Source: Acidobacteriota bacterium (GTDB lineage Bacteria > Acidobacteriota > UBA6911 > RPQK01 > CBDEGM01). From it: DNA of 64,000 nt. Position 1 is the first letter of the stretch. Every line of letters begins with the position of its first letter. The notes below the pieces were generated by a model. The model searched no databases, was not told the origin of the DNA, and saw only the letters and a list, made by a program, of their open reading frames with translations. The translations under genes and the position numbers were made by a program. Shown here one piece after another: positions 9,033 through 46,230 of the stretch. The stretch is taken from the NCBI GenBank assembly GCA_965237715.1, contig CBDEGM010000003.1:1746375-1810374 (forward strand), read 5' to 3'.

Positions 9033-11067
9033 ACTGGGAACGGAAGAGATTCCTGCGAACATGATTTCTCCGGCCCTGGACGAAATGCGCCAGAGCTTCG
9101 AGGAGTTGTTCAAGGGGCATCAAATCCACTGCGATTCGATGAAATCCTACTGTACTGCGCGTCGGCTCGCGATCATTCTGGAGGGACTTCCCGAGCGTGA
9201 GCCGGAACGGGAAGAGGTCGTTTTGGGACCTCCTAAATCGAAGGCCCTGGACGCCCAGGGCCAACCCGCCAGGGCGGGCCAGGGTTTTGCCCGTAAGATG
9301 GGCGTCTCCTTTCAGGATCTGGTCATCGTGCCCACCGAGCGTGGTGAATATATGGCCTGTCGAAGGCGGCAGAAAAGCAGGCTCCTGTCGGACATCCTGC
9401 GGGAGGCTTTGCCTCAGATCATCTCTTCCATTTCCTGGTCCAAGAACATGTTCTGGAGGCAGAGCCGGTTCCGATTTGTTCGGCCCTTGCGATGGTATGT
9501 GACCCTCTGGAACGGGAAGACACTTCCTTTTGAGTTTGAAGGAGTACGAGCAGCTCAGTTCACGGTTGGGCATCGGTTCCTGGGAAAGAAAAAGATTCGA
9601 ATGGCCAGCGTGGATGGATACCTGAAGAAGTTAAGGGAGAACTACGTGCTGGCGGACGTGGAGGAGAGGCGGGCCAAGATCCTTGAAGAAATAAGAGAAC
9701 AGACCCCCAATGATCTGCACATCCTCCCGGACCCTGATCTACTGGAGGTCGTGGTTCATCTCAACGAGTATCCCACCGTTTTGCGCGGCTCGTTTGATGA
9801 AAAATTTCTGGAAATCCCCCAAGAAGTACTGGTAACGGTGATGCGGCATCACCAGAAATACTTCTCTATCCTGAACGAAAATAGGGAAATTCAGCCTTAT
9901 TTTCTGACGGTGGTCAACACCAGTCGAGATTCGGAGGGGATCATCCGGCGAGGTCATGAGAAAGTCCTTAAGGCGCGACTGGAGGATGCCGCCTTTTTTT
10001 GGGGCACGGATCAGAAAATAACCCTGAAGGATCGTGTGCAGCAGTTAGATCACATCGTGTTTCAAGAGAAGCTGGGAAGTTATCGAGATAAGACGGAGCG
10101 AGTTCGTGCCCTGTGCCGGCAGTTGGGAGGTGACCAGGATCTGGAGACGGCTGCGCAGCTCTCGAAGGCCGATCTCAACACAAAAATGGTTCGTGAGCTG
10201 CCCGAACTGCAAGGGGTCATGGGTGGCCTGTATGCGCGCGAAGAAGGCTATTCGGAACCGGTATGGAAGGCCATTTATGAGCATTACCGGCCGGTCTCTT
10301 TGGAGGATGACTCTCCTTCGACTCGAAATGGAGCTCTCCTGTCGATCAGCGACAAACTGGACACAGTGGGAGGTTGTTTGAGCGTTGGAATCGTCCCCAC
10401 GGGTTCCAGTGATCCGTTTGCCTTGCGCCGGCAGGCACAGGGCATAGTGAAAATTCTGTTTGATTGTCAGCTCGACTATCCGTTGCCTCGGCTGGTAGAG
10501 ATGGTTCAGTACGACTTCTCTTCCGAGAGGTCCGAGCAGGATCTGCGTCAGGAGATTTTGCAGTTTTTGCAGCGACGAGTGCGTTTCCTTCTCCAGGACA
10601 AAGGAATTCCTTACGATGTGCTCAACGCAGTACTGGCGGTCGGGATCGAAGCGGTGTATCCGGCCTATCAGAAAGCGCAGGCACTGGTCAATCTGAAGGG
10701 TGAGGCTGACTTTGAGGCAGTGGCCTCTGCCTACAAGAGAATCAAGAATATCCTTGCTCATCAGAACATCGAGGCCTCGTCTGTGGCGGAGTCCGACCTG
10801 GTAGAGCCTGCGGAGGTGAACCTCTATCAGGCATTTCGCGACCTGGAAACCAAAGTGGAAGCCGACTTGAAAGGGTCTGATTACTCCCGCGCGCTCAGGC
10901 GGATTGCAGGCCTGAGAGATCCTGTGGACCGATTCTTTGACGAGGTGCTAGTGCTCACCGACGATGAGAGACTGCGCAGAAATCGATTGCGGCTGCTGCA
11001 CGACCTGTCGCAGCTTTTCCTTGGCATCGCGGACATTTCAGAAATGGTGGGAAGTTCCGGCAATTGA
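9007..11067 (+). CDS. glyS: Glycine--tRNA ligase beta subunit
   Basis: [16 protein letters not shown] start overlapping the glyQ stop; 686 aa. Confidence 0.85.
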
Positions 11068-11130
11068 GCCTGGCCGACCGAGAAATTCGCGAATTTCGTG
11101 GTTCGAATGATGAATGACACCGCCCCCTGT

Positions 11131-11163
11131 GCTGATAGCTGACCAGCCTGGTCAGCTATCAGC
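11131..11163. terminator. 33-bp near-perfect palindrome GCTGATAGCTGACCAG-C-CTGGTCAGCTATCAGC between convergent glyS and lpxD (bidirectional terminator), followed by GGTCAGC repeats
   Basis: Read directly. Confidence 0.55.
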
Positions 11164-12199
11164 AGGTCAGCAGGTCAGCCAGTTTCTTGCGCAGCTCGCC
11201 GATTTCCTTCTCCATTCGCTTTATTTTTCTCACTAAATCAGGAAAATCCCGCATTAGAAGGTAGTTCTTTTTCCAAAGAGATACATCCATTTCCGGGCTT
11301 CCTGAAATCATCTTGCCTGCTTTTACCGAACGGGCAATTCCTGTCTGAGGGACGGCCACGACGTGATCTCCGATGGTCAGATTCTGAGATACGCCGACCT
11401 GCCCTCCCAGCATGACCTGATTGCCAATTCGCGTCGTGCCTGCGAGTCCGACCTGAGCTGCCAGTACCGTGTCTTCCCCCACCTGGCAGCCATGGCCGAT
11501 CTGCACCAGATTATCAATTTTTGTGCCTCGCCTCACACGTGTTTCTCCTACCGTGGCTCGATCCACACAGGCATGAGCCCCAATTTCTACGTCATCCTCC
11601 AGGACTGCAATTCCCGACTGGATGATCTTGTAGTAGCTTCCGTCGGCCTGGGGTGCAAATCCAAAACCGTCTGCGCCTACGACGGCTCCATTTTGCAGGA
11701 TGACCCGGTCGCCAATTCTGCAGTATTCCCTCACCACGCTGTTGGAATGGGCGGTGAAGTGGTCACCGATTACTGCATGGGGATAGATGGTGACGTTAGC
11801 GTACAGCGCAGCGTGGTTGCCGATTCGGACCTCTTCACCGATGACCACGTTGGCTCCAATGGAGTAGTGCTCACCGAGCACGGCGCTCTCCGCGAGGGTG
11901 GCCGTAGGGTGGATCCCCGCTATGGGTTCTGGACTCGAATAGAAGAGTTCGACTGCCCGGGCGAAGGCGAGATAAGGATTCTCGGACACCAGTGTGGGGA
12001 TCGAGCTTGCGGGAGCGTCTGGCCCCAGGATAATGGCGCCGGCCCCAGTTCTCTTGATCTTCGACAGGTACCTGGGATCGGAAACGAAGGTGAGCTCGTT
12101 TTGCCCCGCTTCTTCGATGCCGGAGACGCCGGTGATCTCCAGATCCTCCGCTCCTCGAAGCTTGCAGTTGAGTTTTCTGGCGACCTCTCCCAATTTCAT
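11159..12199 (-). CDS. lpxD: UDP-3-O-(3-hydroxyacyl)glucosamine N-acyltransferase
   Basis: LpxD N-terminus and hexapeptide repeats. Confidence 0.85.
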   Translation of the reverse strand: MKLGEVARKLNCKLRGAEDLEITGVSGIEEAGQNELTFVSDPRYLSKIKRTGAGAIILGPDAPASSIPTLVSENPYLAFARAVELFYSSPEPIAGIHPTATLAESAVLGEHYSIGANVVIGEEVRIGNHAALYANVTIYPHAVIGDHFTAHSNSVVREYCRIGDRVILQNGAVVGADGFGFAPQADGSYYKIIQSGIAVLEDDVEIGAHACVDRATVGETRVRRGTKIDNLVQIGHGCQVGEDTVLAAQVGLAGTTRIGNQVMLGGQVGVSQNLTIGDHVVAVPQTGIARSVKAGKMISGSPEMDVSLWKKNYLLMRDFPDLVRKIKRMEKEIGELRKKLADLLTC

Positions 12200-12306
12200 G
12201 AGTTCTCTGGCTCCCGAGTCAGGTAAAGATGATAACGTAACTTAATACTAACTTTCATAAATATGTGGAAGGCTCTTACCACAAGGCACAAAGACACGAA
12301 GAATCC

Positions 12307-13890
12307 ATGATTCGACGTGCTCAGTCAGCTCGTGCAGCGGGAGCGGTGAGTCTTGCCGTTTTCCTCAGCCGCATCCTGGGTGTGGTCCGGGAACAGGTTT
12401 TTGCCCGATTCTTCGGCGCAGGTATTTATAACGACGCCTGGCTGGTCGCTTTTCGCATCCCCAACCTCTTGAGAGACCTTTTCGCCGAAGGGGCCCTGAG
12501 CTCGGCCTTTGTTCCGACCTTTACCGGACATCTGCGTCAGAAAGGACTTTCGGAAGCATGGCTCCTGGCGAACCTGGTGTTCAGTGGACTCCTCATGGTC
12601 CTGGGCACCATTACCCTTATTCTCGTGACTTTCCCCACTTTCTTTGTGCTGCTCCTGGGAGCGGGTTTTGCAGAGGTTCCGGGAAAGATTGAAATCACGG
12701 CCAGCCTGACCCGCATTCTCTCGCCTTTCTTGATGTTGGTGGCGATGGCCTCCGTCGCCATGGGTGTCTTGAATGCGCTCAACCACTTTTTCATTCCGGC
12801 ACTGGCTCCGGCGCTGTTCAACGCCGCGCTGATCCTATCTGGTTTTTTTCTGGCGCCGCAGTTCAAAGAGTGGGGTATCGAACCTATTTTTGCCATGGCG
12901 GTGGGGGCATTGATAGGAGGTTTCTTGCAGTACGGAGTGCAGGTGCCCCTGTTGCGCCGGCACGGCTACCGCTTTCGTTTTCTGATCGACTTTCATCACG
13001 AAGGAGTGCGCAGAATGGCACGACTGATGGCACCCGCGGTGGTGGGAATCAGTGCTCTGCAGATCAACATTGTGGTTACCACGTTCATTGCTTCTTTTTT
13101 GCGAGACAACGGTCCCATCTCGTGGCTGAACTACGCCTTTCGCATTGTTTACCTTCCTATTGGCCTTTTTGGGGTTGCGGTGGGTACTGTCAACCTTCGC
13201 GAAGTGTCTATCTCTGCGGCAGAGCAGGAGTGGGAGGATTTGAAGGAAACTGTGGCTCATTCGGTCAAGCTGGTCTCCCTTTTGGCGGTACCGTCGATGG
13301 TTGGGCTGATCCTTCTGTCCAGGCCCATCGTGAAGGTGCTCTTTGAGCGGGGAGAGTTTACCCATGGGGACACCCTATCAACCGCAAATGCGCTGACTTT
13401 CTACTCTCTCGGACTTCTTGCCTACTGCCTGGTCAAGATCTACGGACCCACCTTCTATGCTCTGGATGACACCCGCACACCGGTCCGTATCAGCGTGACG
13501 GCGGTGGTCACCAACATCATCACGAACCTCATTCTTGTCTGGACGCTGCCCTCGGGTTACCAATACCTTGGCCTCGCATGCGGGACCGCCTTTTCAGTGA
13601 GCCTTAATGCCATCCTCCTGGCGCGGGGTTTTCGAAAAAAGGTCGGTTCTCTGGGGCACTACCACGTGTCCATGACGATTGTAAAGATGGTCACGTCGGC
13701 TGCCGTTATGGGGCTCCTGGTCTTTTTTCTCCACCACCTGTTGGAAGGCCGCTGGGAGGAGATGGGTTTTCCTGGGGAAGTCTCGGCTCTTTTGGTCTCG
13801 GTATGCGTCGGCATAGGAGTGTATTTTTGGTGCTGTCGGCTTTTTAGGATACAGGAAGTGAACTATCTGTTCGATCGTCTTCATCTCTAG
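12307..13890 (+). CDS. murJ: Lipid II flippase MurJ
   Basis: MurJ/MviN signature NDAWLVAFRIPNLLRDLFAEGALSSAFVP; ATG at 12307. Confidence 0.85.
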   Translation: MIRRAQSARAAGAVSLAVFLSRILGVVREQVFARFFGAGIYNDAWLVAFRIPNLLRDLFAEGALSSAFVPTFTGHLRQKGLSEAWLLANLVFSGLLMVLGTITLILVTFPTFFVLLLGAGFAEVPGKIEITASLTRILSPFLMLVAMASVAMGVLNALNHFFIPALAPALFNAALILSGFFLAPQFKEWGIEPIFAMAVGALIGGFLQYGVQVPLLRRHGYRFRFLIDFHHEGVRRMARLMAPAVVGISALQINIVVTTFIASFLRDNGPISWLNYAFRIVYLPIGLFGVAVGTVNLREVSISAAEQEWEDLKETVAHSVKLVSLLAVPSMVGLILLSRPIVKVLFERGEFTHGDTLSTANALTFYSLGLLAYCLVKIYGPTFYALDDTRTPVRISVTAVVTNIITNLILVWTLPSGYQYLGLACGTAFSVSLNAILLARGFRKKVGSLGHYHVSMTIVKMVTSAAVMGLLVFFLHHLLEGRWEEMGFPGEVSALLVSVCVGIGVYFWCCRLFRIQEVNYLFDRLHL

Positions 13891-13913
13891 TGGGTGGGAC
13901 AGGATACGAGTAG

Positions 13914-14810
13914 ATGCAAGAGCGTGCCTTTGGGAACTACCTGAGCTATCTTCGCGTTGAAAAGGGCTTGGCTGCCAATACAGTCGACGCGTATGAACGG
14001 GATACGCGGAGGTTTCTGTCATTCCTGCAACGCGAAGGCTGGATTCTGGAGAAGGTAGGCAAGGACGAACTACTGCATTATCTGCAACATCTTTACGAAG
14101 ACCTTTCCCCGCGGACGATTGTCCGAACCCTCGCCAGCTTGCGCTCATTCTACCGATTTCTTCTTCTGGACGGGTATTTGACAAAAGACCCATCGGAGAC
14201 CCTGGACTCTCCCAGGACCTGGCGGACCTTGCCTCAGTTTTTGACCCAGGAGGAAGTCGAGCAGCTGCTCGAGCAGCCGGATCCAAAAACCCCTCATGGC
14301 CTTCGGAATCGAGCCATGCTTGAGACCCTTTACGCGACGGGTCTGCGCGTGAGCGAACTGGTGCACCTCAGAAGTGATGAGGTCAGTCTGGAGGCCGGTT
14401 TCCTGAGAACGCTTGGCAAGGGAAACAGGGAACGGATTGTTCCCATCGGAGATTCCGCTGTAGGTCGGATCCGGCGCTACCTTGCGGAGGCCAGGTCGTG
14501 CTTCCTGCGCAGGCGCCCCCCAAGCCCTTTCCTCTTCCTCACCCAGAGAGGGGGAGCCATGAGCCGTCAGTATTTCTGGACGATCGTGAGTCAGTACGGC
14601 GAGAGGGCCGGGATTGAAAAGAAACTCAGCCCCCACGTCCTTCGACACAGCTTCGCCACACATCTGCTGGATCATGGAGCGGACCTGCGCGCAGTCCAGA
14701 TGATGCTTGGCCATGCCGACATATCGACTACTCAGATCTACACTCATGTGAGCCGAGAACGTCTCAAGAAGATCTATGACAAATACCACCCAAGGGCACT
14801 TGGGGAATGA
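13914..14810 (+). CDS. xerD: Tyrosine recombinase XerD-like (XerC/D family)
   Basis: Phage-integrase fold with the catalytic C-terminus HxLRHSFATHLL...Y. Confidence 0.75.
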   Translation: MQERAFGNYLSYLRVEKGLAANTVDAYERDTRRFLSFLQREGWILEKVGKDELLHYLQHLYEDLSPRTIVRTLASLRSFYRFLLLDGYLTKDPSETLDSPRTWRTLPQFLTQEEVEQLLEQPDPKTPHGLRNRAMLETLYATGLRVSELVHLRSDEVSLEAGFLRTLGKGNRERIVPIGDSAVGRIRRYLAEARSCFLRRRPPSPFLFLTQRGGAMSRQYFWTIVSQYGERAGIEKKLSPHVLRHSFATHLLDHGADLRAVQMMLGHADISTTQIYTHVSRERLKKIYDKYHPRALGE

Positions 14811-14868
14811 CGGGGACCGGCTGACCGGCCGAGAACGAACAACTGACAATGAGGCTTGCTCGAAAGGG

Positions 14869-15696
14869 GGTTCTGGTGCAGATAGGATTGTCGGAGCGAT
14901 AAGGCCAGGAGTGCGCCCCGGCGATGCGGCCTATGTTGCCATGACGTGACGCCAGATCACCACGGGATTCGGCTGCCATGGGATCGGAATTGAGAACTGG
15001 CGTTTGTGAATCTTCTGCGCCAGCTCGATGCCGATAATGACACGTCGCGCATTGTAGAACGTCTTGAATCCCAACATGGGGCGCAATCGCCCCTTCACCC
15101 GGCGGTGGTCCTGCTCCACAACGTTGTTCAGGTATTGACAGCAACGAATCTTCACCGGGTTCCGCCCCCGGAAGTTGAACTCCCCGTTCATTCCCATGTG
15201 CCGCAGGGCGCTATGGCTCGGCCGGTGGCCATCCAGAGTGATGCTGTGTGGCTCCCGATGATGCTTCAGCGCCTTGCGAAAGAAGGCCTTCGCCGCTGCG
15301 ATGCCACGTGCCCGACTGAGAAAGAACTCCACAGTGTTGCCCTGTCCGTCCACGGCGCGGTACAGATACATCAACTGGCCCCGAATCTTGATAAACGTTT
15401 CATCAACCCGCCAGCTCCCACCCACCGGTCGTTCGAATCGGCTCCAACGCCTTTCGCAGGTTTCGGCATAGCGAACGACCCACCGCAAGATCGTGGTATG
15501 CGAAATCGGTAAACCCCGCTCACCTAAAATCTCGACCAGGTCCCGGTAACTCAGTTTGAAGCGGAAATACCAGCGAAGGCAGAGAAGAATGATGTCGTCT
15601 TCGAACCAACGTCCGGCAAATAGAGGATTCCGTTCCGTTTTACGATGCGCCATATCTCATTATCGCCAATCCCCGTTGGCTGTCTGCACCAGAACC
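14869..15696 (-). mobile_element. IS6-family IS (828 bp), terminal IRs GGTTCTGGTGCAGA, no TSD
   Basis: IRs at 14869-14882 and 15683-15696 flank the transposase. Confidence 0.8.
14931..15653 (-). CDS. IS6-family (IS26-like) transposase
   Basis: 240 aa; RWYFRFKLSYRDLVEILGERG...WRVDETFIKIRG...YLYRAVD. Confidence 0.85.
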   Translation of the reverse strand: MAHRKTERNPLFAGRWFEDDIILLCLRWYFRFKLSYRDLVEILGERGLPISHTTILRWVVRYAETCERRWSRFERPVGGSWRVDETFIKIRGQLMYLYRAVDGQGNTVEFFLSRARGIAAAKAFFRKALKHHREPHSITLDGHRPSHSALRHMGMNGEFNFRGRNPVKIRCCQYLNNVVEQDHRRVKGRLRPMLGFKTFYNARRVIIGIELAQKIHKRQFSIPIPWQPNPVVIWRHVMAT

Positions 15697-16190
15697 GGCG
15701 GTTTGTTGGATCAGGCGTTAATCCACACCGGAACCGCCCCCACAGTCGTCGGCATCCCGTTGGAGATCAACGTCAGATAAAAGCTGCTTATCGTTTCTTT
15801 GGAAGTGGCGCCTCTGTCTTGTCTGAGGCGCATGGGAGAATAAAGCTATGGTGCGTAAACGAGACGGGTTGGTTCCCATTGGTGAAGTCATCGCCGATCT
15901 GCCCGAACCCGTCCAGGCGCTCCGCGAAGCACCCCGACCGGCGCAACACCACTTCACCCAAGCCGATCAGGTGCACCAGCTTGTTTCGGCCAGCGAAGCG
16001 GACCCCGACCGGGGCTTCATGGCGCGGCTGATGGCGCTGTGCAGTCTGCCCCGCACCAACCGGCAACCGACTTCTTTACAGGCGCGTCAACGGCCCCTAC
16101 CGCCCCTGCATGCAGGCCGGGCCGGAGACCAGACGATTAACTGGATCGCCTGGACTACTTTGACGGCAGCAGCCATACGACTGTAGTGTT

Positions 16191-18359
16191 ATGAGTACAG
16201 CTTCGCCGACCCCTTCTCCCGAAAGTGTGCTCCTGGTTCAATGCTGTCATCTTCCCCAGTTTTTCTACCTTGCTGAGAAGCTGCGACAGCGCAACCCTGA
16301 ATGGATCCTCTCAGCTCTCGTTACCGACCGGCCACAAGTCCGTTTCTACCTGGAACTGTTCCCACCCTTCGACCATCTTTTCTTCTTCGATAAGAAGTTG
16401 CCCGAGATGCCGGGTGCGTTCGATCAGATCCTGTTCCCACTTTTGAACCGCGGCTATTTGCGTATCAAGAGAGCCGCCCGCCAGCTTCCGGGGACCGCGT
16501 ATGAAATCGATTACCAAGGAGAACATCGAGCCTTGAAGCTGGGGACCTTGGTTCGGTCGTTTGCCGCGCCCCTTCACAGGCCTTCTGAAGAATTTGTCCA
16601 GTACCTGGAAGATTTTCCGCATAGACCTCTGGGAGAAAAAGTCCTCGTTGTCGAAACCTGTCATCGGTCGCTGGCCGACTCGAGTGAAGAGAAATGGGGC
16701 CGCCTGATTCCTGATCAGGCCGAGGTCACCAGGATCTCTGTTTCGACAGAAGGGCGAGGCTGGAGAGCTTTACGCCGACAGAGTTTCGACAGCGGAGTGG
16801 TCTTTTTCTCAGGTGAGAAAGGATTCGCTAATCTGAAGCTGCTTCCCTTCCTCCTAGGGATTCCCAAGATCCTAGTAGTTAACGAGCATGGCGACCACTT
16901 CTATGCCACCTCCCGCAGTCTTCTGCGATTTCTATGGGGGCGCGTCTGGCAGGGAGCCCCATTGCCCAAACCATCCCCTCGCATTCTGGTGATACAGACC
17001 GAAAGTCCGACCTACGTCAGGCGGGCGATCGAAGTTTTGAGAAAGCCGGAAATGTTCCCTCGTTCACGGATCTGCCTTCTGTGCCGGAAGGAAGACGCCG
17101 ACAGATTCCGGAATGTATCGGGCCTGGAAAGTGTTTTGACCTACTCCCGTCGGAAGGTTGGGAGCAACGTGGGATTGTGGAGGGATCTGAAGGGGTTCGA
17201 CGCGGTTGCGGCTGTCTTTTCGGGAAGGGGTGTTTTTCGGAAGCAGAAGCTGCTGTATTTTCTGCTCCCCATTCGCCATCATTTAGCTTTCAATGCCCGA
17301 TCGGATTGCTATCGCCTGACACCCCGGACCCTTTTCTGGACGCTTCGCAAGGATCCCTCCTTTTTCGCAGCCGAGAAGCAACCTGTCTCTCCCATTCTAT
17401 TTCTTCTCACGGACAAGGACTCCAGAGCCCGCAAGGCCATCGAGAGGCTGCAGGATCCCAAGGTGGTCTCGCCTCAACCCATCTGGGTCTTCTGCCGCGA
17501 GGACAAGCGCCCTTTGTACGAAGCCCTGCCCGGGGTAGAGGAGGTTCGGACCTATGCTCCGGGACGGACCCGGGAGAACCTGAAGGCGGTTCTGGCCCTG
17601 GCCCGCTCCCGAGTGGAAGTCGTCTCCTCGATCTTCTCTCCCCAGCCCGCTTTCCGGCTGCAGAAGCTGCTCTTTGTGCTCCTGCCGGCGAGACATCGGC
17701 TGGCCTTCAACCAGGAGGATCTCAACTGCTACTATCTGAAAGGCCGCCACGGTCGTCGAGGCCAACCTTCGGTCTGGGGAACGTTGTTCCGCGTGCTGCT
17801 CACGCGAAGTCGGCGGGCCTCCCGCCCCACGTTGTTTTTCCCCACTGCGGAAGATTCCAAAGCTGTAGAGGCCATCGAGAGGCTGCAGGATCCCAAGGTT
17901 GCCGCTAAATCGATTGTGGTCTTCTGCAGAGAGGACAAGCGACCTTTATACGAGGATCTTCCCACCGTCGAAGCAGTCTGGACATACGCTTCAGGTAGCA
18001 GTTTAAGGCATCTGAGGACGTGGGTGAGGCTGCTGCGAACCAGAGTGGATCTGGTTTGTGCCATCTTCACCGGTCGGCCGATCTTCCGCTTGCAGAAGTT
18101 CCTGTTTCTCACCTTACGTGCCCGGAATCGGCTGGTCTTCAACGAGGACCTCAACTGCTACATGCTAAGAGGCAACCTGGGCCGGTTCCTGCAACCCAAG
18201 GGAGGACATCGGGAGCTGGATCATTTGGCTCTGAAACTCGTTGTGCGGAAGGTCCTCAAAGGGTTTCTGTTTGTCCCCAGATTTTTGTACCTGATCCTCT
18301 GGGCAGCTGTTGTCACCATGAGAGCGAGGCACCGTATTTCCCAAGAAAGGAGACGCTAA
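16191..18359 (+). CDS. Hypothetical 722-aa protein built from four tandem 120-150-aa modules resembling the N-terminal Rossmann segment of GT9 heptosyltransferases (modules 2-4 end in the motif LQK(L/F)L..L..R.RL.FN..(L)NCY.L)
   Basis: Internal repeats read directly (e.g. KAIERLQDPKV..VFCREDKRPLYE..P.VE.V.TYA); the GT9 likeness is from the pattern ILVI..S..D....AIE.LR...P..RI..L. Confidence 0.45.
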   Translation: MSTASPTPSPESVLLVQCCHLPQFFYLAEKLRQRNPEWILSALVTDRPQVRFYLELFPPFDHLFFFDKKLPEMPGAFDQILFPLLNRGYLRIKRAARQLPGTAYEIDYQGEHRALKLGTLVRSFAAPLHRPSEEFVQYLEDFPHRPLGEKVLVVETCHRSLADSSEEKWGRLIPDQAEVTRISVSTEGRGWRALRRQSFDSGVVFFSGEKGFANLKLLPFLLGIPKILVVNEHGDHFYATSRSLLRFLWGRVWQGAPLPKPSPRILVIQTESPTYVRRAIEVLRKPEMFPRSRICLLCRKEDADRFRNVSGLESVLTYSRRKVGSNVGLWRDLKGFDAVAAVFSGRGVFRKQKLLYFLLPIRHHLAFNARSDCYRLTPRTLFWTLRKDPSFFAAEKQPVSPILFLLTDKDSRARKAIERLQDPKVVSPQPIWVFCREDKRPLYEALPGVEEVRTYAPGRTRENLKAVLALARSRVEVVSSIFSPQPAFRLQKLLFVLLPARHRLAFNQEDLNCYYLKGRHGRRGQPSVWGTLFRVLLTRSRRASRPTLFFPTAEDSKAVEAIERLQDPKVAAKSIVVFCREDKRPLYEDLPTVEAVWTYASGSSLRHLRTWVRLLRTRVDLVCAIFTGRPIFRLQKFLFLTLRARNRLVFNEDLNCYMLRGNLGRFLQPKGGHRELDHLALKLVVRKVLKGFLFVPRFLYLILWAAVVTMRARHRISQERRR

Positions 18360-19261: not shown

Positions 19262-19603
19262 TCAAGCAGCGTCTCGATAGTAGTATCGAAGCAAGCCAAC
19301 GAGCCTGGGACGGCAACTTAATTCGCCGTCCTTGCGACCCACTTCATCTCCCGCATCAATGATTCGGTTCGCGAGTCCCTGATGATTCCGTTCGTGGTGA
19401 AAGTGCTCTCCGAACTCTCTCAAGGCCCGACGCAATGACGCTTCACCAAAGAAGATCATACGGTTGAGACATTCAGATTTCAGGGAGCGCATGAAGCGTT
19501 CCAGATGAGCATTGAGATTAGGACTCTTGGGAGGTAAGACTACCGCCTCGATGGAGGCTGCCCCAAACTCAGTTGAAAGTGAAGGGCGGTTCAGGTTGAG
19601 CAC
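19262..19603 (-). pseudogene. C-terminal part of the IS481-like transposase (separated from its N-terminus by the IS256-like insertion)
   Basis: Identical to the last 113 aa of the 359-aa transposase. Confidence 0.7.
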
Positions 19604-20987
19604 GATCTTAAGCCACCTTTCGTTTGGCGTCCATAGAAACCTCGTCTCTGAGTTTGGCTTTCAGCATCCAGAGGTCCTGGTAGCCCTGGATGCGCCGGAA
19701 GTTCTTCTCCGTCTCCAGGAAGGCTGAGGCGGCCCAGCGCAGCACCATCTGGCTATCTTTCCAGCGGCTCACTCGGCGGGTCCGCATCCTCACGCCAGAG
19801 TGAGGGCTTTCAATCAGGTTGGTGCTGGCCAGACACAAGCGCAGGGAGGAAGACAACTCGAGTCGATTGATGGTGAAGGTCTCTTCCAGACCTTCTCGCA
19901 GGCTAGCTGCCGCATCGGGATGCAGCCCTTCGAGCCACTCCGCCTGCTTTCTGAGCCGAACCCTCCCTTCTTCCCAGGGCAGCCGATAAGCAGCCTGCAT
20001 CACTGACTTGACTTGCTCGGCCAGATCGTCCGGCAATCGATCGCACACGTTGCGAATCTTATGACGACGACATCTCTGCACCGGACTGCCCTTGCCAAAG
20101 ACCTTGTCAATGGCACATCGCAGGGCCCTGGAGCCGTCAATCACAAACAGATAGCGTCGCCCGGAATCCAGGCCTCGCTCCACCAGGTCTTCCAGCAAGG
20201 AGGTAGCGGTGGCGGCGTTTTCACTGGCCCCTTCCCGCAGCCCCAGCACGTGCTTTTGGCCCTCCGAGTCCACGCCGGCGGCACAGATCACGTGGTGCTC
20301 GCCAAAGACCAGGCCGTCGATGTAGATGATCAGAAACTCAACGTCATCAAAGTGTCGCTCGGCCAGCTGCTCCAGCTGCTGGCCGCTCTGCTCAATGAAC
20401 TGACGGCTCACGGACGATTTGCTGACTCCCACCGTGTCGGCCATCTGGGGGATCACGCGGCTGTAGTGGCGCGTGGAAACGTTGCACGTCAAGATCTCCA
20501 GCATGCGGCTGCCCAGCTCCCCGTTACGGTTGATCGCCTCATAGGCGGGGATCTCCACCTCCCCGCCTCGACCTTGGCCTTTCTTGCGCAGCCGTGGCTT
20601 TCGAACCCGCACTTGCCGCTCCGAAAGTCTGACTCGCCCTGGCTGAGTGCCGTACCAAACGACCTGCTTGCCTGGGCGCCCTTGTTGCTTTTCGCCGGCG
20701 ACACTTCGGGCAGAAAGCTGCAAGACCGCTTCCATGCTCGCTCGCCCCAGGATGTCGATCAACTCGTCAATGGCCATCCGGGGGGCTTCGATCAGCTCCA
20801 CCATCGGGAGCAACAGTTGCCCGTTCTGGGCCAGATAATCAGCCAGCCCCTGACTGTTCTTCCGGGTGACAATTCGATATGATTTCTTCATGGCTGTTCC
20901 TCCTTAAAAGGTTGTTGACCAACCCGATTCTAACGAGTCGGTCGGACGAACCGCCTCTCAACTTTCAACTAAACCCGGGACAGTCTC
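19554..20987 (-). mobile_element. IS256/ISLre2-like IS (1434 bp), roughly 38-bp IRs, 8-bp TSD CCTCGATG
   Basis: TSD at 19546-19553 and 20988-20995; the uninterrupted IS481-like sequence carries a single CCTCGATG. Confidence 0.8.
19608..20891 (-). CDS. Mutator-type (IS256/ISLre2 family) transposase
   Basis: 427 aa; DGSRALRCAIDKVFG...VQRCRRHKIRNV motif. Confidence 0.8.
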   Translation of the reverse strand: MKKSYRIVTRKNSQGLADYLAQNGQLLLPMVELIEAPRMAIDELIDILGRASMEAVLQLSARSVAGEKQQGRPGKQVVWYGTQPGRVRLSERQVRVRKPRLRKKGQGRGGEVEIPAYEAINRNGELGSRMLEILTCNVSTRHYSRVIPQMADTVGVSKSSVSRQFIEQSGQQLEQLAERHFDDVEFLIIYIDGLVFGEHHVICAAGVDSEGQKHVLGLREGASENAATATSLLEDLVERGLDSGRRYLFVIDGSRALRCAIDKVFGKGSPVQRCRRHKIRNVCDRLPDDLAEQVKSVMQAAYRLPWEEGRVRLRKQAEWLEGLHPDAAASLREGLEETFTINRLELSSSLRLCLASTNLIESPHSGVRMRTRRVSRWKDSQMVLRWAASAFLETEKNFRRIQGYQDLWMLKAKLRDEVSMDAKRKVA

Positions 20988-21782
20988 CCTCGATGTCGCT
21001 GGACTTCAAGATCTGACGCAACGGCAAGTGCTTCGTGTCACGGTCAAGGATGACGTGGGCCGAGCTGCGGAAAAAACCGTCGACACAGCCGGTCAGGTTC
21101 CTTCCGAGTTGCTGCATCCATTCGGAGTTGGGGTGAGGCGTCGCACCCGCGATTTCAATGCGCCGCGTCTTTAGATGCATCACCACAAGGACGTAGAACG
21201 TGACCAGTCCTGACCGAGTCCAGACCTCAACGGTCGTAAAGTCGGCGGCTGCGATCGAATCCCAGTGAGCAGCAAGGAAGGTACGCCAGGCCGTGCGGCT
21301 CTCGCGCTCTGGAGCTGGCTCGATGCCGTGGGCTTTGAGAATGTTGCCAACCGTGGTGTCAGAGATGTGGAAGCCCAGGTTGGCTAAAGCACCCTGGATA
21401 CGGTCATAGCCCCAGCTAGGATTCTCCTGAGCCATGCGCAGAGCCAAGTCCACAATCTGTGTCGAATGCGTGGCCGGCCAACGGATTGCCTCTTGTCTGA
21501 GTGATCCCACTTGCGAGCGATAAGCTCTCGATGCCAGCGCAGAAGCGTGTCGGGCCTGACGATCTTGGCCAGTTTGCCGAGGCTTTTTCGGCCCAGCACC
21601 TTGCCCTTGACGGCCAAGCGTCGACGCTGGCCGTCGTTGAGCAGAATGCGGCGCTTGCCGAGCTTTTCTCTGAGTACCTGATTCTCAGTCAAAAGATACT
21701 CGATCGCGTCCTGCTGGTCTCTGTTGATCCAACCGGCCAAGATCAGGAGCAGCAGCTGCCAGGGCCTGAGCACGAAGTTCAT
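20965..21782 (-). pseudogene. N-terminal two-thirds of the IS481-like transposase, with two frameshifts
   Basis: ORFs 20965-21510 and 21384-21782; the [22 protein letters not shown] segment marks the shifted frame. Confidence 0.6.
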
Positions 21783-27793: not shown

Positions 27794-28605
27794 GGCACTG
27801 TCAGAGGAAAGTCGCAAGGACTGAGTTCTCCACCGACGACAGGGAATTAGGCCGCCCCGAGCTGACGCCACTCGGCGAGTGCGGCGGCGCGGTTGAGCTT
27901 GAAATTGTCTCGTGAGCAGAGGTGTCGTGCCTGGTTGAAGTGATTGTAAACGGAAGAATGAACGGTGGCGAATTTCTGGAGGCTTTGCATCCGCCTGAAA
28001 CGGAGCATGGCGTGTTCTCGTCGCCGGAACGGCAGGTGTGAATTCTCCGCACGATTGTTCAGCCAGCGGCCGGCTTGTTGCAGACCGGATCCGCCCAGTT
28101 CGCGCAACGCCGCTCGGTAAGACCTCAGCCGATCAGTGATGATCGCATCCGGCCTGCCGTAGCGCTTCATTAGTTTCCTGAGGAATTTCAAAGCGGCTTC
28201 GCGGTCTCTCTTCTTCGAGACAAAGGCCTCAAGCACCTCGCCTTCCTGGTCGACGGCTCGCCAAAGGTAATGGCCTTCGCCGTTGATCTTCACGAACATC
28301 TCATCGAGGTGCCACCGCCAACCCGAAAACGCGCGCATTCGATCCATCCGCTTCTTGCGGATCTCGGCGGCGAAGATCGGGCCGAACCGGTTCCACCAGA
28401 ACCGGATCGTCTCGTGGCTCACCTCGATCCCACGCTCGTGAAGAAGGTCCTCGACATTGCGTAGCGACAGTGGGAAGCGAACATACATCATCACTGCCAG
28501 GCGGATGATCTCGGGCGAGGTCTTGAAATAGCGAAAGGGGTTCTTCATCCGAAGACACTACAAGGCGCATCTCGCCGACTCAAGCCAGTTTCCTCTGACA
28601 ATGCC
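27794..28605 (-). mobile_element. IS6-family element 2 (812 bp), IRs GGCACTGTCAGAGGAAA / GGCATTGTCAGAGGAAA
   Basis: IRs read directly at both ends. Confidence 0.75.
27847..28548 (-). CDS. IS6-family transposase (distinct from 14931-15653)
   Basis: 233 aa; IS6 pattern SLRNVEDLLHERG...HLDEMFVKING. Confidence 0.85.
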   Translation of the reverse strand: MKNPFRYFKTSPEIIRLAVMMYVRFPLSLRNVEDLLHERGIEVSHETIRFWWNRFGPIFAAEIRKKRMDRMRAFSGWRWHLDEMFVKINGEGHYLWRAVDQEGEVLEAFVSKKRDREAALKFLRKLMKRYGRPDAIITDRLRSYRAALRELGGSGLQQAGRWLNNRAENSHLPFRRREHAMLRFRRMQSLQKFATVHSSVYNHFNQARHLCSRDNFKLNRAAALAEWRQLGAA

Positions 28606-45245: not shown

Positions 45246-45499
45246 ACCAGTTACCGGGTTCATCCTTGAAATTCGCTCCGATCGGATGAATCCAATAGTC
45301 GTACGTCTTACCCGAAGCGCCTTCCCACTTAATGATGTCAGCCATCGATTTTTCCCTCTGAACTCAACTACTACTAGTTGTCATTTTCCACCGAAGCTCC
45401 CGGCGCTCGGGGGCGAGGTGTCGCGGATCACCTTCACCGGCCCGCTCAGGCCGGAGCGGGCTTCGGCGATGGGAACCAAGCCGTCTTGTTGTTTACGCT

Positions 45500-45991: not shown

Positions 45992-46230
45992 ACTCCATGT
46001 GGTGCAACGCCTGGAGGCGTGGCTTCGCGGAGCGCCTGGGCCGGGCCGCCCAAGCCGAACACGACTTCCCCGATCGGAACTAACTCGCCGTGTTGACGCT
46101 GCATGGCTTTATTCTCCCATGCGGCTCAGACAAGACAGGCGGCGGGAGAAGGGTTACAGGCCCAGGTGGCCGTCCTGGGAGCGCCCGCCCCCGTTTTAAC
46201 GGGTCTGGGACGGTCGTGCTGATAATGGCG

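Follow-up and report, generated by a model that had tools for sequence, protein, structure and literature searches.

The 64,000-nt stretch of DNA analyzed here (hereafter "the window") comes from an Acidobacteriota bacterium (contig CBDEGM010000003.1, positions 1,746,375 to 1,810,374 of the forward strand) and carries, at positions 16191–18359, a gene for a protein of 722 amino acids (aa). This protein consists of five Rossmann-like modules in a row, followed by a long hydrophobic helix. Profile comparisons show that the modules descend from the acceptor-side (N-terminal) lobe of the family 9 glycosyltransferases (GT9), and with slightly better than even confidence we regard the protein as an accessory or scaffold subunit that is tethered to the membrane and serves a glycan-assembly machine without catalysis of its own; the topology, the lack of catalysis and the binding role are our inference. 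The fold and the superfamily are known; what is new here is the architecture, together with a repeat behavior resembling that of a variable number tandem repeat (VNTR) and a reproducible genetic partnership.

The gene is real and conserved. In comparisons with five relatives (77–97% nucleotide identity), the ratio of nonsynonymous to synonymous substitution rates (dN/dS) was 0.17–0.24, and it stayed at 0.20–0.24 even against loci L003 and L015, which are 96–97% identical. Differences were most abundant at the third codon position in all five comparisons; against L004, for instance, the three positions differed at 135, 81 and 273 sites, respectively. Both results imply that selection acts on the annotated frame, rather than on any of the open reading frames (ORFs) of 100–324 aa that overlap the gene in other frames. 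A preliminary description of this DNA, made from the sequence alone, had listed the 722-aa ORF as well as many such overlapping ORFs, and we recovered its exact coordinates and its ATG start; the possibility raised there, that the real gene might lie in another frame, was not borne out, and the DNA that it called high in G+C is only moderately so (56–58% around the gene). Database searches returned 171 homologues, i.e., one identical protein and 170 more. Most of them carry no label, a few are called "hypothetical protein" and one bears the JGI label "ADP-heptose:LPS heptosyltransferase".

When the whole protein was compared with itself by BLAST, only the identity match was returned, and a segment-wise comparison was needed to bring out the repeats. 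Residues 406–545 and 546–722 proved 59% identical over 120 aa (E = 4e-45), residues 271–405 matched each of these two segments at 34–36% identity (E = 2e-17 and 3e-15), and residues 141–270 matched 271–405 at 40% identity over 55 aa (E = 8e-8). These internal repeats are far above chance, as had been proposed, and the motif previously given for them, KAIERLQDPKV...VFCREDKRPLYE...LQKLLF.LLPARHRLAFN.EDLNCY.L, can be read in D and E, the last two modules. A module profile, iterated over all homologues and then run on the protein, gave four matches, at residues 178–242 (partial), 265–379, 402–519 and 547–661.

An AlphaFold model of the full-length protein (pLDDT 78.3; predicted TM score, pTM, 0.36) shows five β/α modules, termed A to E (Table 1), and then the helix. 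The preliminary description had suggested such a prediction as a check; the half-domains that it proposed do appear in the model, in the number of five and not four, together with the C-terminal helix that it had missed. The relationship among C, D and E is clear (E from 1e-15 to 4e-45). Module B fits the module profile in its second half, and module A, which gave no significant sequence match to that profile, is recognizable in the structure model only. All multi-module members of the family, distant ones included, begin with a conserved "head" made up of A and B (E from 1e-69 to 1e-110).

Module C was also modeled on its own with AlphaFold2, using a 46-sequence module alignment, and came out as a Rossmann-like domain (pLDDT 92.8) with the order β-α-β-α-β-α-β-α-β-β. 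Several conserved polar residues fall just after its strands: Q269-T270 after strand 1, C298-R299 at the end of strand 2, G345-R346 after strand 4 and N368 after strand 5. Further conserved residues are K353 in helix 4 and D372-C373 in strand 6. According to the model, these positions lie along the edge at which Rossmann-like sheets usually bind their ligands. Each module also contains a pair of conserved cysteines (C298 and C373 in module C).

The origin of the modules was not apparent from standard family searches. A Pfam scan of the 722-aa protein returned no family at E ≤ 10, PF01075 (Glyco_transf_9) included, and the same was true of nine relatives; NCBIfam and PADLOC scans of the protein were empty, and PDB sequence searches with the protein or with the module profile gave no match. 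The module profile did match P0266, a bona fide double GT9 protein (PF01075 at 242 bits), with a library-wide E of 8.5e-7 among 1.84 billion cluster representatives. A local hidden Markov model (HMM) of the module matched the N-terminal lobes of both GT9 units in P0266, and hhalign placed the module on residues 10–92 of that protein at 83.5%. GT9 N-lobes were also assembled into a small alignment (3tov, 1psw, 2gt1 and the two lobes of P0266), against which the module profile scored 95.6% in hhalign (E = 1.1e-8, 80 columns). As a negative control we used N-lobes from the GT4 enzymes whose genes adjoin module genes in other genomes; they scored 0.2%, and a derivation of the module from the partner GT4's own N-lobe was rejected on this ground. 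The matches to GT9 N-lobes and the negative control together identify the module as a diverged homologue specifically of the GT9 acceptor-side lobe. The likeness to the N-terminal half of GT9 enzymes noted previously is right at its core; the match rests on the profile of modules of the C/D/E type, and module A showed no significant sequence match.

In GT9 enzymes the N-lobe holds the acceptor, and the Asp of a Gly-Asp (GD) loop is the catalytic base in HepI. Both residues of this loop, G14 and D15, are the same in every GT9 N-lobe aligned, whereas the module consensus has no conserved Asp there: the stretch aligns to S-P-T-Y or to a gap, and in place of the GD loop there is a shorter one containing Q-T-(E). 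Because the loop is not conserved, "GT9-like" means common descent and fold, not membership of the enzyme family. Moreover, the second, nucleotide-sugar-binding (C-terminal) lobe of the GT-B clamshell was not found in the 722-aa protein, in agreement with the preliminary description. Of four defining GT9 features tested, three (Pfam profile, donor lobe, catalytic loop) are therefore missing and only the N-lobe homology is present, so the protein should not be annotated as a heptosyltransferase. With neither a nucleotide-sugar-binding lobe nor the GT9 catalytic aspartate, it is most likely not a glycosyltransferase by itself.

A hydropathy scan located the hydrophobic core of the C-terminal helix at residues 688–710 (nt 18252–18320). 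Within the helix, P696, R697, F698, L701 and W704 are invariant across the family, and a comparable hydrophobic C-terminal helix occurs in most complete members, including single-module proteins of ~190 aa. The 722-aa protein lacks a signal peptide, and its pI of 10.4 and net charge of +52 make it extremely basic. Given this very basic bulk and the lack of a signal peptide, the helix would probably tether the protein at the cytoplasmic face of the inner membrane. A plain transmembrane helix would agree less well with the invariant Pro-Arg-Phe/Trp residues and the basic flanks than would a re-entrant anchor or a specific contact within the membrane.

The module family is rare, unnamed and devoid of a curated profile: our module profile matched 213 of the cluster representatives searched (clusters at 50% identity). 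Its plan is the A+B head, a variable number of modules and the C-terminal hydrophobic helix, the smallest members being one module plus helix; two-module proteins measure ~340 aa, and up to seven more profile-detected modules follow the head in the largest ones. Per protein, the profile detects from one to at least eight modules, the maximum seen being in P0102. Even proteins 83–97% identical to the window protein differ in length, in steps of about 722, 870, 1020 and 1160 aa, and near-identical proteins step from four to seven profile-detected modules. The extra modules (in P0029, P0006 and P0001) are 88–97% identical to module D and 93–100% identical to each other. In L016, Tandem Repeats Finder (TRF) detected a 432-bp unit in 4.1 copies (97% match) at positions 11296–13047, inside a 1161-aa allele of the same gene; overall, the amplified module-D unit measures 432–435 bp. 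P0102, encoded in L012 and belonging to another lineage, has its own independent run of modules that are 93–99% identical.

The near-identical copies of module D and the independent run in P0102 imply that the number of modules changes by recent, recurrent tandem duplication; the module-D repeat behaves as a protein-domain VNTR. In the window gene itself, DNA similarity between modules could be detected for D and E only, and because these two are just 67% identical, TRF found no tandem repeat there; the module copies of the window allele are accordingly old. The genomes with close relatives are metagenome-assembled genomes of Acidobacteriota, one of them labeled UBA6911. Since their alleles differ in module number only, they constitute a clean natural experiment.

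Functional hints come from distant Acidobacteriota, where the module gene (32–52% identity at the protein level) is the last gene of a glycosyltransferase operon. In L011 and L012 it directly follows a 791–792-aa GT2-GT4 fusion gene. In L019 a gene for a 420-aa S-adenosylmethionine (SAM) methyltransferase and a 760-aa GT2-GT4 gene come first, the stop of the latter overlapping the start of the module gene by 4 nt, and in L017 the order is methyltransferase, small opposite-strand gene, GT4, module gene. The single-module gene of L014 lies between GT4 and GT2 genes with overlapping boundaries, and that of L013 comes after a GT4 C-terminus; the glycosyltransferases beside these single-module genes are homologous to the fused GT2-GT4 enzyme (32–43% identity). 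The link of the module to GT2, GT4 and methyltransferase is confirmed by three natural fusions, namely P0218 (transmembrane segment, module, GT2 and GT4), P0251 (methyltransferase, module, GT2 and GT4) and P0189 (three modules and methyltransferase). The preliminary description was silent on this link, as it was on the C-terminal helix and on the variation in copy number, all of which we found.

In L011, L012, L017 and L019, two genes are transcribed divergently from the operon: one, large, for an M10-like peptidase, and one for a protein of ~200 aa whose N-terminus resembles a signal peptide. Those of L011 are homologous to those of L012. The methyltransferase/GT2-GT4/module operon and these divergent genes may represent one conserved envelope gene cluster. 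Gene pairs for an extracytoplasmic function (ECF) sigma factor and a zf-HC2 anti-sigma factor were also seen near the module operon in L011, L012 and L013. The context in L009/L010 (76% identical; positions 9314–14869) is different but also envelope-related: downstream are a PF00884 sulfatase-family gene (620 aa) and a DedA/VTT gene, with an LpxL-type acyltransferase nearby. Upstream, separated by a 3-nt gap, lies a gene for a 227-aa protein, considered as a partner in L009 and rejected as an unrelated polytopic membrane protein.

On the reading that we favor, what the protein would hold at the membrane is either the acceptor, linked to a lipid, or the glycan as it grows, or else the partner enzymes. 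Each module would bind through its conserved polar face (Q-T, C-R, G-R, N and D-C). The window gene is an intact copy, still under purifying selection, that has been carried off from its partners into a region rich in insertion sequences (ISs). Several observations weigh against this interpretation. No GT2, GT4 or methyltransferase gene was found within ~10 kb of the gene in the window, in L002–L010, in L015 or in L016, and the functional link is therefore transferred from homologues that are no more than 32–52% identical. The low pTM means that the relative placement of the modules is not reliable. Both flanks of the hydrophobic helix are basic, so that the positive-inside rule does not settle its topology. 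Finally, a catalytic activity of some other kind would be equally in keeping with the strong conservation of polar residues on the ligand-binding face.

An alternative role for the array, which we deem unlikely, is that of a molecular ruler or spacer between the GT2/GT4 polymerase and a terminating methyltransferase, with the number of modules tuning chain length, as is done by the coiled coils of WbdD and WbbB. In its favor are the partners named above, a methyltransferase and two glycosyltransferase modules, and the stepwise variation in module number through near-identical duplications, with an independent amplification in P0102. In P0251, the module sits between the methyltransferase and the GT2-GT4 part, the position occupied by coiled-coil rulers in the Klebsiella O7/O12 proteins (PMC11231755), and WbdD, too, has a C-terminal membrane-associated helix (PMC11231755). 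However, the 722-aa protein contains no coiled coil, its low pTM lends no support to a rigid rod, and the operons of L011, L012, L017 and L019, which were examined, showed no genes for ABC transporters. In addition, the single-module members cannot be rulers, and a spacer would not need conserved pocket residues in every module.

Very unlikely, in our view, is a split GT-B enzyme, in which each module would be a membrane-anchored acceptor half, in the manner of Alg14, recruiting a separate donor half. The single-module relatives do consist of exactly one N-lobe and a membrane helix, and the conserved face of the module corresponds, judging from residue positions and from what is generally known of GT-B enzymes, to the face turned toward the inter-lobe cleft. 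Yet no orphan gene for a GT-B C-lobe was found beside any member examined, where the neighboring GT4 and GT2 proteins are complete enzymes and the small neighbors had no Pfam match suggestive of such a lobe. Nor did any other ORF of the fetched loci match the module profile. The GT9 catalytic Asp is missing and the anchor is C-terminal, unlike that of Alg14.

The modules might instead be a ligand-sensing or enzymatic Rossmann array acting outside glycan synthesis (for example, in nucleotide sensing like that of the CRISPR-associated Rossmann fold, CARF) and traveling as mobile-element cargo in the window clade. The module genes of the window, L015 and L016 do lie amid transposase, resolvase, RepA_C and ArdC genes, and the extreme basicity of the 722-aa protein could be seen in the same light. 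Still, we consider this highly doubtful: the profiles tie the module specifically to GT9 N-lobes, and every informative context outside the window clade is rich in glycosyltransferases. The matches of the module to CARF-type folds were generic and had no sequence support; the 722-aa protein shows neither a CARF fold with a fused effector domain nor a defense-locus context, consistent with the empty PADLOC scan; and no relatives were found in a single-protein scan of IMG/VR viral contigs or among PLSDB plasmids.

As reported in Table 1, the window gene is preceded by an IS6-family transposase gene and by a 112-aa ORF, and it is followed by an integrase-core transposase gene that a Mutator/IS256-type insertion appears to have split, leaving an rve_3 fragment; the earlier statement that the gene lies between IS elements was correct. 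An IS6-flanked composite transposon was rejected: no second similar IS6 copy is present in the window, and the two IS6-family copies are dissimilar in DNA. The first 71 aa of the 112-aa ORF are 75% identical to the N-terminus of a 326-aa RepA_C protein in L016, and this ORF was rejected as a functional partner because it is a repA remnant. Shorter repA-related pieces occur ~30 kb downstream (at about 45393–45494 and 46009–46138 of the window, minus strand), and the scattered pieces suggest remnants of an integrated element resembling a plasmid or an integrative and conjugative element. No second module gene or GT2-GT4 homologue was found within the 64-kb window, and the window copy is thus an orphan, with a repA remnant and IS elements for neighbors.

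The housekeeping genes of the window (MgtE, RecO, GlyQ/GlyS, LpxD and MurJ, according to the gene calls of the identical locus L001) end at a gene for a 298-aa XerC/D-like tyrosine recombinase (13914–14810, plus strand). The IS-rich stretch begins right after it and runs to about 28548, where a second IS240-type transposase gene (27847–28548) ends.

That the window copy is a functionless passenger or a decaying remnant stranded by IS activity is quite improbable: its similarity to L003 does begin at 16190, one base before the start codon, the gene upstream is a truncated repA, no convincing promoter or Shine-Dalgarno sequence lies upstream, and IS elements lie on both sides, but the reading frame is intact, the dN/dS against L003 and L015 is low despite their close identity, and the unit of repA remnant plus gene is kept, with the same junction, in another assembly (L015, 98%).

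Table 1. Coordinates of the 722-aa gene, its modules and the surrounding features (window positions unless another locus is named; i-E, independent E-value; AF2, AlphaFold2; HTH, helix-turn-helix)
Feature	Position	Strand	Remarks
Gene for 722-aa multi-module protein	16191..18359	+	ORF with ATG start; identical protein P0046 on record
Module A, aa 12-122	16224..16556	+	Rossmann-like without helix 3; AF2 secondary structure
Module B, aa 150-254	16638..16952	+	Diverged copy; HMM i-E 2e-21 (aa 178-242); blastp E 8e-8 to C; AF2
Module C, aa 264-385	16980..17345	+	Family motifs IQTE, LCR, SGRG, K, FN..DCY kept
Module D, aa 402-520	17394..17750	+	HMM i-E 4e-53; unit tandemly amplified in longer alleles of close relatives
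Module E, aa 547-660	17829..18170	+	Nearest to C-terminal helix; 59% identical to D
Long C-terminal helix, aa 674-721	18210..18353	+	AF2 helix; putative membrane anchor
IS6-family transposase gene	14931..15653	-	PF13610 DDE_Tnp_IS240, E 8e-39
Truncated RepA_C-type replication-initiator remnant, 112-aa ORF	15848..16186	+	Directly upstream of 722-aa gene
Integrase-core (rve_3) transposase gene, split	19262..21510	-	Pfam
rve_3 fragment	19262..19603	-	Pfam
Inserted Mutator/IS256-type transposase (Transposase_mut)	19608..20891		Pfam
HTH part of split transposase	20965..21510	-	Pfam
Divergent M10-like/~200-aa gene regions	L011 3394-7191; L012 3525-7193; L019 529-4299; L017 2409-3895		

Literature searches for tandem arrays of GT-B N-lobes retrieved no description of any. 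GT-B enzymes normally contain a fixed pair of lobes; here, the acceptor lobe has been freed, linked to a helix and multiplied up to at least eight-fold. Should the modules bind lipid-linked glycans or dock enzymes, they would define accessory subunits of a new class, used in making envelope glycans in a phylum that has been little studied. The domain family deserves a profile of its own, because in current pipelines it receives no name or that of a "heptosyltransferase".

Among known systems, the GT9 heptosyltransferases (WaaC/HepI, 2h1f and 2gt1; WaaF, 1psw; a Veillonella GT9, 3tov) have the N-terminal acceptor-binding lobe in common with the 722-aa protein. Unlike them, the latter lacks the ADP-heptose-binding C-lobe and the GD loop, and presents the lobe five times before ending in a hydrophobic helix. 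In the Alg14/Alg13 pair, the N-lobe of a GT-B enzyme forms a polypeptide of its own, anchored in the membrane. That plan comes nearest to the single-module members P0220, P0222 and P0237, whereas the window protein has five lobes and a C-terminal anchor. Alg14 belongs to another glycosyltransferase family, has an N-terminal anchor and works with a dedicated C-lobe partner; to our knowledge, it does not occur in tandem arrays, and no gene for such a C-lobe partner was found beside the module genes examined or in the window. GtfB of the streptococcal GtfA-GtfB system is also derived from a glycosyltransferase and has lost catalysis, serving substrate binding or partner activation; it keeps both GT-B lobes and is soluble. 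The non-catalytic state that we propose for the 722-aa protein would resemble that of GtfB; no sequence relationship to it was found, though none was tested for.

A last comparison is with rulers of the WbdD/WbbB type. These rulers work with a terminating methyltransferase and a two-module polymerase, and a length-variable element sits between membrane or polymerase and terminator. A comparable placing of the element, and genetic coupling to a glycosyltransferase pair and a methyltransferase, is seen in the distant homologues and the fusions and not in the window or its close relatives. In WbdD, WbbB and the Klebsiella O7 ORF6 protein, coiled coils separate the terminating methyltransferase from the polymerase modules (PMC11231755), whereas the module proteins are strings of globular Rossmann modules, the only long helix of the 722-aa protein being the C-terminal one. 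The boldest scenario, which we would give only an outside chance, is that tandem, catalytically dead GT9 N-lobes form a bead-type ruler or scaffold for glycan assembly in Acidobacteriota, with chain length or architecture tuned by gain and loss of the module-D unit and with the ruler gene having become mobile in one clade. If true, this would amount to an answer to the problem of chain-length control that does without coiled coils.

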